From positions 61 to 64,060 of the forward strand of contig JBIIEL010000007.1 in assembly GCA_044237845.1 (NCBI GenBank): a stretch of DNA of 64,000 bases, given 5' to 3'. The number at the start of each line of letters is the position of its first letter. Position 1 is the first letter of the stretch. The position numbers and the translations under genes were made by a program. The notes under the pieces were generated by a model, which was given only the letters and a program-made list of their open reading frames with translations, did not search any database and was not told where the DNA came from. Source of the stretch: Rickettsiales bacterium. Its GTDB lineage: Bacteria > Pseudomonadota > Alphaproteobacteria > Rickettsiales > UBA3002. Shown here piece by piece: positions 10,647 through 63,998 of the stretch.

Positions 10647-10733
10647 CAGATGAGTGCAAGTAGAATATGTAAGGTATGAAGGTTGGAAATTAGCAGGATA
10701 ATTCCTGATGATTGATCCGACCATATCCTTAGA

Positions 10734-12211
<1,478 letters not shown>

Positions 12212-14432: not shown

Positions 14433-14509
14433 CGCGGGGTGGAGCAGCCCGGTAGCTCGTTAGGCTCATAACCTAAAGGTCGTCGGTTCAAATCCGGCCC
14501 CCGCAACCA
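14433..14509 (+). tRNA. Initiator tRNA-fMet (anticodon CAT), CCA encoded
   Basis: CGCGGGGTGGAGCAGCCCGGTAGCTCGTTAGGCTCATAACCTAAAGGTCGTCGGTTCAAATCCGGCCCCCGCAACCA. It is near-identical in architecture to E. coli tRNA-fMet. C1 is opposite A72 (initiator hallmark). The anticodon stem has GG/CC next to the CTCATAA loop. Confidence 0.92.
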
Positions 14510-62267: not shown

Positions 62268-62537
62268 TTACTTACGAATGCCCAGCTTCTCGATGAGGAC
62301 ACTGTAGCGTTTTGTATCCTTGCCCTTCAGGTAGTCGAGCAGGCTACGACGTGCGCTTACCATTTTCAGCAGGCCGCGACGCGAGTGGTGGTCTTTTTTG
62401 TGGCCTTTGAAATGCTCGGTGAGGTTCGTGATACGCTCGCTCAGGATGGCGATTTGTACTTCCGGCGAACCGGTGTCGCCTTTGCCGGTAGCGTGTTCTT
62501 TAATCAGCGCAGCTTTGCGCTCAGCAGTGATGGTCAT
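62268..62537 (-). CDS. rpsO: 30S ribosomal protein S15
   Basis: 89 aa from [15 protein letters not shown].... The ATG at 62537 is preferred, since it gives the canonical length, over the track start at 62555. Confidence 0.93.
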
Positions 62538-62559
62538 GGTACTTCCTCTCGACATCGGG

Positions 62560-63639
62560 TTAAGTGTTTAGCAGCCGAACCGAAATCACCTGATTTCCTT
62601 CCACTCGCGCCAGCCCCACCAATTGCCCCTGATGCAGCACCGCAAGCAGTGGCGTATCAGGATAGTGAGAAGCCAACGTTACCCGTTGACCATGGCGCAG
62701 TGTGTTCACCTGCCCGCCCTCCAATGCCAGTGCCGGGATGTCGTCCAGCGCGGCGTGAAGCGGCGTAAGCCCGAGGAAAGCTTCTCCCCCAAGCGGTGGC
62801 GCGTTATGCACCGATTCGGCCAGAAAATCCAGCGAAATCGCATCACGATCGGTGAAGGGCCCCACCGCTGCCCGGTGCAGGCGCGAGATATAGCCCTCCG
62901 AGCCCAGCGCATGCGCAATATCACGACCTAAGCTCCTGATATATGTACCTTTGGATACTTTGGCGCGAAATTCCGCGGTTTTCAAAGTGGGTAAGCCCTC
63001 ACCCGGAGCGCCCCAAAGCGCTCCGACCTCTCCCAAGGGAGAGGTAACCGAGTGTGCGTTATTGTTTGAATACAAGAGGTGACGCGGCGTCACCTCTCCC
63101 TTGGGAGAGGTCTGAATTTGCTCTTGGGCAAATTCAGGGTGAGGGCTGGCGCAGGAAAACCCCAAAAACTCCAGCGCATAAATCGTCACTGGCCGCGGCT
63201 GAAGCACCACCTCCTCCCCCGCGCGGGCAAGGTCGTAGGCGCGTTTTCCGGCAACTTTGAGGGCGGAATAAGCCGGGGGAAGCTGCATCACCGTGCCGGT
63301 GAAGGCAGGTAAGATACTGCGTATCTCGGTTTCCGTTGGAATCTTATCCGAGGTCGCGACCACCTCCCCTTCCGCGTCATCCGTCGCGCGACGCTCGCCG
63401 AAGGTCACGGCAAATTCATAGGTTTTCTTGGCATCCATCAGCAGATTCACGCATTTGGTGCCCTCGCCGAGCGCGAGTGGCAGCACGCCCGTAGCCAGCG
63501 GGTCGAGCGTCCCCGCATGGCCGATTTTCTGCGGCCTCAGCAGCCACTTCACCTTATTCACCGCATCCGCAGAGGTGATGCCCAGCGGCTTAGAGAGATT
63601 AATCCAGCCGTTGATGGCGTTTTTGTTTTGTTTTTTCAT
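62560..63639 (-). CDS. truB: tRNA pseudouridine(55) synthase TruB, carrying an in-frame ~50-aa insertion
   Basis: [32 protein letters not shown] and SKGTYIRSL. 359 aa, against ~300-315 typical. The extra segment lies between [10 protein letters not shown] and [17 protein letters not shown]. Confidence 0.92.
62994..63147. mobile_element. Nested-palindrome (MITE/RPE-like) element inserted in frame within truB
   Basis: 11-bp terminal inverted repeats, AGCCCTCACCC and GGGTGAGGGCT. Internal hairpins: GGAGCGC/GCGCTCC, ACCTCTCCC-AA-GGGAGAGGT, AGGTGACGC/GCGTCACCT, ACCTCTCCC-TT-GGGAGAGGT and CTGAATTTGC/GCAAATTCAG. Confidence 0.7.
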
Positions 63640-63680: not shown

Positions 63681-63998
63681 TTATTTCTTTTTTATACTGA
63701 CATGAATCTTTTCAATGCCAAGCTCTTGCCATTTTCCTTGACGGAAGTTTGGCCACCCGCGCAAGTTTCCCAAAACATTCGATGATTCTTTAAACTTATT
63801 TGCCTTCCAAATACTCTTGTCTCTGAGCCCATCAGAATAAAAAGTTTCTATTTCTGCAACACGGTGAACGAGCAACTCATTTTTAAAATCTGCTGATTTT
63901 TTTGGATCTAGCGTGATTGGTAAAACATTTGTTTTAGGTGCGCGGCTACCAACGCGCGTTGTATTTTTTCTAACATTCGACTCTAGAATGTCAGGCAT
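63681..63998 (-). CDS. Hypothetical protein (105 aa) in a visibly AT-rich segment
   Basis: Complete ORF MPDILESNVRKNTTRV...IHVSIKKK with no motif recognised. Its composition is clearly more AT-rich than truB next door, by eye. Confidence 0.4.
   Translation of the reverse strand: MPDILESNVRKNTTRVGSRAPKTNVLPITLDPKKSADFKNELLVHRVAEIETFYSDGLRDKSIWKANKFKESSNVLGNLRGWPNFRQGKWQELGIEKIHVSIKKK

Follow-up and report, generated by a model that had tools for sequence, protein, structure and literature searches.

Why does a housekeeping enzyme of an uncultured freshwater alphaproteobacterium carry more than fifty extra residues, and where did the DNA that encodes them come from? The question is raised by truB, the gene for tRNA pseudouridine-55 synthase, in a Rickettsiales genome (assembly GCA_044237845.1). 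The stretch analysed here, which we call the window, is 64,000 nucleotides of contig JBIIEL010000007.1 (positions 61 to 64,060). Its TruB has 359 residues, compared with 297 to 310 in members of the genus whose corresponding site is empty. A preliminary description made from the sequence had noticed that the protein was about 50 residues longer than usual and had ascribed this to a nested palindrome of about 150 nt, inserted in frame in the manner of a Rickettsia palindromic element (RPE). The analysis presented here identifies the segment at 62994-63147 as, with a probability of roughly 0.85, a stranded copy of a non-autonomous palindromic repeat similar to REPINs and to MITEs (transposable elements of miniature size with inverted repeats).

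The 165-nt insertion in truB is present in this lineage and absent from the sister species G013. The truB genes of the two share 93% nucleotide identity (92 to 96% between the proteins), and their pairwise alignment leaves exactly 165 nt, or 55 codons, without a counterpart in the G013 gene, which encodes about 303 residues and has an empty loop that reads GF-TSPN-TAAF. The extra sequence consists of the 154-nt element, which encodes TruB residues 165 to 216, and of 11 bases on its sense-strand 3′ side that we provisionally count as part of the same insertion event. A relative from a wastewater metagenome (run X4) has an empty allele of the same type as G013. A contig from an independent lake-water run (X3, from another study and another year) is identical over 62936-63175, which covers the whole element and both junctions, and the element is therefore not an assembly artefact. 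The motif ACCTCGCCC in the G013 loop resembles the palindrome arm ACCTCTCCC, yet reading that loop as the footprint of an excision was rejected; similar native loops (FTSK and FTSP) occur in G023 and in one allele of G016, and for this reason the G013 loop is probably the ancestral one.

The gene is otherwise intact, and only one of the six reading frames through the element is open, which is that of truB. In Pfam searches TruB_N covers residues 31 to 163, and TruB_C_2 and TruB-C_2 begin at residue 235, with approximately 70 residues between them unmatched and no domain found in the 55-residue insert. Matches to TruB structures in the PDB break at query residues 159 and 223, and their alignment sets the insert at about residues 161 to 169 of Escherichia coli TruB. 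The location between two conserved TruB blocks that had been proposed at the outset was also recovered from the open reading frame (ORF) list and from the comparison with congeners. An AlphaFold2 model based on 22 orthologues gives the TruB core a predicted local distance difference test (pLDDT) score above 90; residues 164 to 215 score below 50 (30 to 40), lack secondary structure, and lie between the strands 149-162 and 220-228. The model thereby places the insert at the turn of a beta-hairpin in the catalytic domain, in a loop that is predicted to be disordered.

The anatomy of the element is that of an inverted pair of modules around a core (Table 1). The mirror order of terminal repeat, hairpin, and palindrome on each side, as well as the 11-bp terminal inverted repeats (AGCCCTCACCC / GGGTGAGGGCT), had been recognised correctly, and the repeats can be extended to 14 nt at 93% complementarity. 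The two 20-nt palindromes are reverse complements of each other. When folded as a single strand, the element reaches -103 kcal/mol, compared with -54 ± 4 kcal/mol for 200 shuffles of its sequence, none of which folded as well (z = -12.2). The hairpin of module 2 has matches of 95% identity in G008 and G015, and the most frequent stems of this second hairpin in the genus are TGAATTTGC and TGAATTTTC.

Table 1. Positions of the palindromic element, its parts, and the genes around it (window coordinates).
Feature	Position	Strand	Evidence or remark
Complete 154-nt palindromic repeat, inverted pair of whalefall-1 modules around a 46-nt core	62994..63147	.	
Left terminal inverted repeat AGCCCTCACCC, reverse complement of the module tail	62994..63004	+	Same end in the copies on C44 and C48
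Whalefall-1 module 1: tail, hairpin GGAGCGC/GCGCTCC, 20-nt palindrome	62995..63047	-	RF01762, 38.1 bits, E = 8e-9
Variable hairpin of module 1, 8-bp arms 63004-63011 and 63018-63025	63004..63025	.	Inverted-repeat search
Palindrome ACCTCTCCC-AA-GGGAGAGGT (20 nt)	63026..63045	.	Inverted-repeat search
Core (spacer), 46 nt	63046..63091	.	Shares 76-82% identity with the other two full copies in this genome; no conservation across the genus
Whalefall-1 module 2: 20-nt palindrome, hairpin CTGAATTTGC/GCAAATTCAG, GGGTGAGGG tail	63090..63146	+	RF01762, 51.9 bits, E = 3e-13
Palindrome ACCTCTCCC-TT-GGGAGAGGT (20 nt)	63092..63111	.	Inverted-repeat search
Hairpin of module 2, 10-bp arms CTGAATTTGC / GCAAATTCAG	63112..63137	.	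Most frequent stem type of the genus
Right terminal inverted repeat GGGTGAGGGCT, module tail	63137..63147	+	
11 further bases extra to the empty allele, sense strand TACCCACTTTG	62983..62993	-	Pairwise alignment with G013 truB
truB (tRNA pseudouridine-55 synthase), 359 residues, frame intact, contains the insertion	62560..63639	-	ORF list, Pfam, PDB matches
rpsO (ribosomal protein S15), adjoins truB downstream, context	62268..62555	-	Pfam Ribosomal_S15

Each half of the element matches the Rfam model RF01762 (whalefall-1) over all of its 56 positions and exceeds its gathering score of 37 bits. The match takes in the CUCUCC/GGAGAG stem, the second hairpin with its CUUG-type loop, and the 3′ tail GGGUGAGG, and one whalefall-1 seed sequence (supplement of PMC2864571) is nearly identical to the module. 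The repeated unit of about 55 nt, composed of a hairpin CCTCTCCC-NN-GGGAGAGG, a variable second hairpin, and a tail GGGTGAGGG, is the Rfam whalefall-1 motif. The remaining Rfam matches, to microRNA precursors of plants and animals (E = 7e-4 to 4.5), lie far under the gathering scores of those families and are artefacts of the long hairpin.

Whalefall-1 was described from a whale-fall metagenome and was rated as "certainly RNA" on the basis of covariation and its tetraloop (Weinberg et al. 2010, PMC2864571), which raises the possibility that the modules are functional structured RNAs and that the truB copy acts on RNA, for example on the stability or translation of a truB-rpsO-pnp messenger. 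The scores of both halves are compatible with such a role, as is the pattern on which the published rating was founded. The second-hairpin stem is perfect and at least 7 bp long in 79 of 95 modules of the genus, with 63 distinct stem sequences and commonly a CTTG-like loop; the stem sequence varies between copies of the family with pairing kept, and something maintains this pairing. The non-Watson-Crick pairs in these stems amount to 21 G.T versus 14 A.C with no strand bias, which led us to reject RNA-level selection in the form of a wobble-pair strand bias. In the inverted pairs the motif lies on either strand at each locus, and modules also sit within unrelated coding genes and on both sides of nuclease genes. 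Their presence varies between sister species, and their number ranges from 0 to 82 within one genus. The lack of wobble bias and the occurrence of the motif on both strands of every doublet fit a palindrome maintained at the DNA level better than an RNA made from one strand, and together with the coding locations they argue indirectly against whalefall-1 as an expressed non-coding RNA, the type under which the family is curated. We therefore consider an RNA function of the truB copy highly improbable.

The three blocks CCTCTCCC, GGGAGAGG, and GGGTGAGGG are found in this order in every module. This is also the order of the blocks in the BoxC/PIT/TMECO repeats, an intrastrand-triplex motif (Holder et al. 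2015, PMC4666352). The published TMECO pattern, CCCTCNCCC N3-6 GGGNGAGGG N3 GGGNGAGGG, fails in its strict and loosened forms on both strands of the element because the second loop of 3 nt is replaced by a hairpin, which measures 19 to 27 nt across the modules and 22 to 26 nt in the truB copy. By its block structure the module is a BoxC/PIT/TMECO-type motif in which a variable hairpin has developed from the second loop. The genome also contains a classical BoxC-like inverted pair with a TTA-type second loop and a 37-nt spacer (C42:90295-90402), which resembles the type A TMECO of E. coli, and the BoxC-like and the hairpin-expanded whalefall-1 forms coexist in it. At C31:28520-28600 the hairpin GAATTTGCTCTTGGGCAAATTC of the truB element recurs at 94% identity between a C12/G6 palindrome and a GGGGGTGG block, with the same plan of three blocks and a hairpin and different block sequences.

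The truB element belongs to a dispersed repeat family. No second copy was found within the window, as had been reported; elsewhere in the genome, full copies lie at C44:5551-5706 and at C48:9462-9684, where the copy has a further insertion inside it, and C53 and C17 carry single modules; the genome thus has three full copies in total. The full 154-nt query matched 12 of 23 congeners and none of 17 other genera, three of which have weak isolated module matches, and the insert is not shared by unrelated TruB proteins. A census with RF01762 counted 7 module matches in this genome, 82 in G015, 54 in G022, 32 in G012, 21 each in G002 and G017, and none in seven congeners. The family is present in most of the searched species of this genus. 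Nineteen full doublets, from this genome and five congeners, are all built alike, with a terminal repeat, a variable hairpin, and a palindrome on each side of a spacer of 32 to 82 nt, for a total of about 135 to 190 nt. Modules occur singly as well as in inverted pairs, the terminal inverted repeats of G015 are longer (GCACGCCCTCACCC), and the spacer is conserved within genome-specific subfamilies only. A fixed polarity of the doublet, with one hairpin type always beside one end of the core, was rejected since both orientations score alike.

Of 22 full copies, about 5 lie within a gene and in its frame. The others are intergenic, with every frame closed by stops or with no more than short frames at the flanks. 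G015 has full doublets within MutS, MazG, and Ffh (for Ffh, in the linker between its N and G domains), on the same strand and in the same frame as in the TruB studied here. All four proteins share the peptide (R/S)PHPEF..IQ(T/A)SP(K/E)GEV.. ..GEG, and the stretch TSPLGEV is also kept in the MutS and MazG of G015; the second half of the Ffh copy is read in another frame. These MutS, MazG, and Ffh inserts are absent from the orthologues of the present genome, which has a further in-frame insert of its own in hemW (radical-SAM, HemN-like; C17:42120-43562, minus strand). This insert of about 34 residues includes one whalefall-1 module (C17:42485-37, peptide RPSPKICEQILASPQGEAA) and is absent from G013, G001, G005, G015, and G018. 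We infer that the truB insertion survived because it is in frame and falls in a permissive loop.

These copies bear on the idea that the 55 residues are a functional, lineage-specific addition to TruB, an exapted loop or domain and not neutral cargo. The open frame, the conservation of the rest of the gene, and the occurrence of the same allele in two lake samples speak for such an addition. The loop, though, is predicted to be disordered, the sister species lacks it, and the peptide is the generic translation of the repeat, which recurs in MutS, MazG, and Ffh. An adaptive role for the insert is accordingly the least probable of the explanations considered here. The proposal that a miniature element colonised a loop of TruB is supported by the empty sites in G013 and the X4 relative, the dispersed family, and the in-frame copies elsewhere.

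The same loop of TruB has been occupied repeatedly. Different relatives of the element fill it in six other congeners, a circumstance that the preliminary description, sound on the insertion and the loop, had missed together with the link to the nuclease cassettes treated below. In truB of G015 (locus L025), the native loop residues RYGFDVPDA (compare LRGDVPSI in G002) stand between two single BoxC-type modules that are inverted relative to each other, from which it appears that single modules can flank short host sequence with the same polarity as around DUF559 genes. The metagenome-assembled genome G016 contains a truB allele with a BoxC-type pair at a contig end (C9, L021) and an empty allele, LEFLGFTSPNTAEF (C104, L139); this suggests a presence/absence polymorphism in the population or two strains in the bin. 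In the TruB tree the occupancy states are scattered, and every occupied species has an empty near relative.

Other essential genes show the same pattern. The N-G linker of Ffh holds a whalefall-1 doublet in G015, a BoxC pair in G003 that is of the same variant as the one in G003 truB, a whalefall-like pair in G021, and further inserts in G012 and G017, the last with module-like peptides (loci L084, L131, L133, L135, and L136). The MutS site is occupied in G015, in G010 (by a BoxC pair), and in G012 (loci L073, L137, and L138). The module variants are recognisably different in G015, G003, G021, G010, and the mutS copy of G012, and different variants in one loop argue against simple shared ancestry. 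The recurrent use of these loops points to a preference for certain targets, to a scarcity of permissive loops, or to turnover in place by gene conversion.

A candidate enzyme is suggested by coding sequence for DUF559 (PF04480, a Vsr-like PD-(D/E)XK nuclease), which is lodged in the same TruB loop in four congeners. The frames are continuous in G017 and G008 (loci L023 and L015), where 494 and 534 residues over the aligned TruB span have the order TruB_N-DUF559-TruB_C. The truB of G003 is split over two overlapping contigs at the repeat (L020 and L140), and that of G010 carries stops or frameshifts (L038) and may be decaying. Elsewhere in the genus, DUF559 genes are flanked by modules whose tails face the gene. 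Seven DUF559 genes have flanks at the RF01762 gathering score, all within one 12-member clade, compared with none of the 18 others, and the numbers of modules and DUF559 genes are correlated over the 24 genomes of the genus (rho = 0.66). A common origin of the truB-resident DUF559 genes was also considered and dropped, as the tree of this 100-residue domain does not resolve them. A RAYT/Y1 transposase (PF01797) was rejected as the partner; no match was found in this genome or in most element-rich congeners (G002, G017, and G022), and G015 gave only a weak one.

The occurrence of DUF559 cassettes in this very loop, in relatives of a genome that now has none, invites the explanation that the truB element is the solo remnant of a cassette, whose doublet-flanked nuclease gene was lost by recombination between the doublets in the way a solo long terminal repeat forms. 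DUF559 genes with a full doublet on one side do exist, in G022 (L108, with two palindromes and a tail on the other side) and in G010 (L109, with a single module on the other side). The cassettes in congener truB genes, however, carry BoxC-type modules without a second hairpin, or a variant with a much longer hairpin, and not whalefall-1 doublets, and the DUF559 genes lodged in truB are not members of the clade that goes with whalefall-1. The two further full copies in this genome have a homologous core, which indicates that the doublet is copied as a unit, and the site in G013 is cleanly empty. On this evidence, an origin of the truB element by loss of a nuclease gene in place is unlikely.

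We instead favor a model in which the truB copy arose by direct insertion of a doublet. The family would be spread by the DUF559 nuclease, the genes of which are bracketed by the same modules in congeners; the nuclease would cut at or near hairpin modules or at empty target loops, and repair after the cut would copy the element in. Since the present genome is devoid of a DUF559 gene, its few diverged copies are probably immobile relics. The identification of the 154-nt segment as a member of a mobile-type repeat family is the firmer part of this model. That DUF559 is the enzyme spreading the modules is a possibility we rate at slightly below even odds, because the modules have opposite polarity in doublets and cassettes and because two lineage-specific insertions occur in a genome without the nuclease. 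A broader conjecture goes further: DUF559 nucleases may drive a class of mobile DNA not described so far, with the whalefall-1 and BoxC-type modules as its ends or recognition sites. Such a class would be targeted to a limited number of loops of essential genes, among them truB, ffh, and mutS, would insert in frame and be translated, and would be neither intron nor intein; the truB doublet would be the non-autonomous form left after loss of the nuclease. We put it forward as speculative, and it is more likely wrong than right.

Several observations weigh against this model or parts of it. No target-site duplication was detected at any of about 22 copies, three of them the full copies here and about 19 from congeners; an apparent flank match in G015 proved to be an extension of the terminal inverted repeat. 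No DUF559 gene was found in this genome, which is 97.9% complete in 59 contigs, and still truB and hemW each carry an in-frame insertion that is missing from the sister species. The nuclease may have been lost later than these insertions, its gene may be in a part of the genome that was not assembled, or the enzyme may be dispensable. Modules occur in the absence of DUF559 in five genomes, and the reverse holds for one. The module tails point outward in solo doublets and inward in DUF559 cassettes, and because of these opposite orientations the doublet does not derive from the cassette by a simple internal deletion. Resolution in the DUF559 tree is poor, and both the correlation and the clade test overstate their support because the genomes are related. 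No movement was observed.

The surroundings of truB include AT-rich DNA immediately upstream, with an ORF of 105 residues at 63681-63998 (minus strand) that has no Pfam match; the base composition shifts abruptly at about 63640. The window also contains a 16S rRNA gene (10733-12211, minus strand) and a tRNA gene (14433-14506, plus strand).

The components assembled here are each known from separate publications: in-frame palindromic repeats (RPEs), whalefall-1 (taken for an orphan RNA), BoxC/PIT/TMECO (intergenic repeats whose origin is unknown), and DUF559 (a Vsr-like fold). No description of an association among DUF559, whalefall-1, and palindromic in-frame repeats was found in the literature. 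In-frame selfish palindromes are, to our knowledge, textbook material only for Rickettsia, and we know of no explanation offered for the BoxC/PIT repeats since the 1990s. RPE-like behavior is now seen in a freshwater alphaproteobacterial genus of the free-living type, in a family that had already been named for another reason. Whalefall-1, a "small RNA" in Rfam, is better accounted for as one half of a DNA repeat, which bears on how covariation-based RNA discovery handles palindromic repeats. The modules common to DUF559 cassettes provide a candidate and testable enzyme for BoxC/PIT-type repeats, and the reoccupied TruB, Ffh, and MutS loops suggest site targeting or long-lived insertion sites with turnover. 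The inserts add 30 to 230 residues to conserved proteins and break metagenome assemblies at essential genes, as in G003 truB. A DUF559-driven class, if it exists, would explain what an orphan Rfam motif, the BoxC/PIT repeats, and the DUF559 family do.

Among known systems, the element behaves like RPEs, palindromic repeats found in frame in protein genes (reviewed in PMC10969869). Each is a palindromic repeat of some 150 bp, is found in frame within housekeeping genes that are unrelated to one another, and supplies a conserved peptide to a tolerated part of the protein. At 154 nt, with three full copies and single modules here and dozens in congeners, the element has the size and copy number of an RPE, and it is likewise read in frame, with a shared peptide in TruB, MutS, MazG, and Ffh and a single module in HemW. 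Set apart by description are its GC-rich, BoxC-like blocks, its occurrence in another lineage, its two-hairpin unit that also occurs singly, and its association with nuclease genes. Membership in the RPE family is unlikely given the GC-rich composition and the match to another named family. The RPE-like label of the preliminary description hence holds for behavior (in frame, dispersed, with the same peptide) and probably fails for sequence identity, the halves being whalefall-1 modules.

The arrangement of inverted hairpin-repeat pairs around a spacer, the coexistence of singlets and doublets, the lack of target-site duplications, a candidate partner gene flanked by inverted repeats, and a copy number that tracks the presence of this partner are all shared with the REPIN/RAYT system (PMC3116915, PMC3337134). 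The candidate partner here is a PD-(D/E)XK nuclease and not a tyrosine transposase, no repeat-flanked RAYT (PF01797) gene was seen, and copies are often inside coding genes. Its terminal inverted repeats, of 11 to 14 nt, are likewise a feature of MITEs, from which the element departs in having neither target-site duplications nor a parent element of the same polarity, the DUF559 cassettes being of opposite polarity. DUF559 has been grouped with the Vsr-fold homing enzymes (PMC3424549), and the congeners resemble carriers of homing endonucleases or inteins in having a Vsr-like nuclease gene that sits in frame at a single, fixed position of a conserved housekeeping gene and is patchily distributed among species. 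They differ in that no intron or intein features were found and that the nuclease appears to be translated as part of TruB; the element in the window encodes no nuclease, and DUF559 lies within truB only in congeners.

In E. coli, TMECO repeats were reported to be always intergenic and to have no link to mobile elements (PMC4666352). The modules described here share with the BoxC/PIT/TMECO repeats the C-rich/G-rich/G-rich succession of blocks, with triplex formation only putative, and differ in the length of the second loop; the BoxC-like modules of congeners flank DUF559 genes in the TruB loop. With whalefall-1, each half of the element matches the model from end to end above the curated threshold. 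The published motif is a free-standing small RNA known only from the whale-fall metagenome (PMC2864571), whereas in the present genus it forms half of a palindromic DNA repeat, occurs on both strands, resides inside coding genes, and flanks the genes of DUF559 nucleases.

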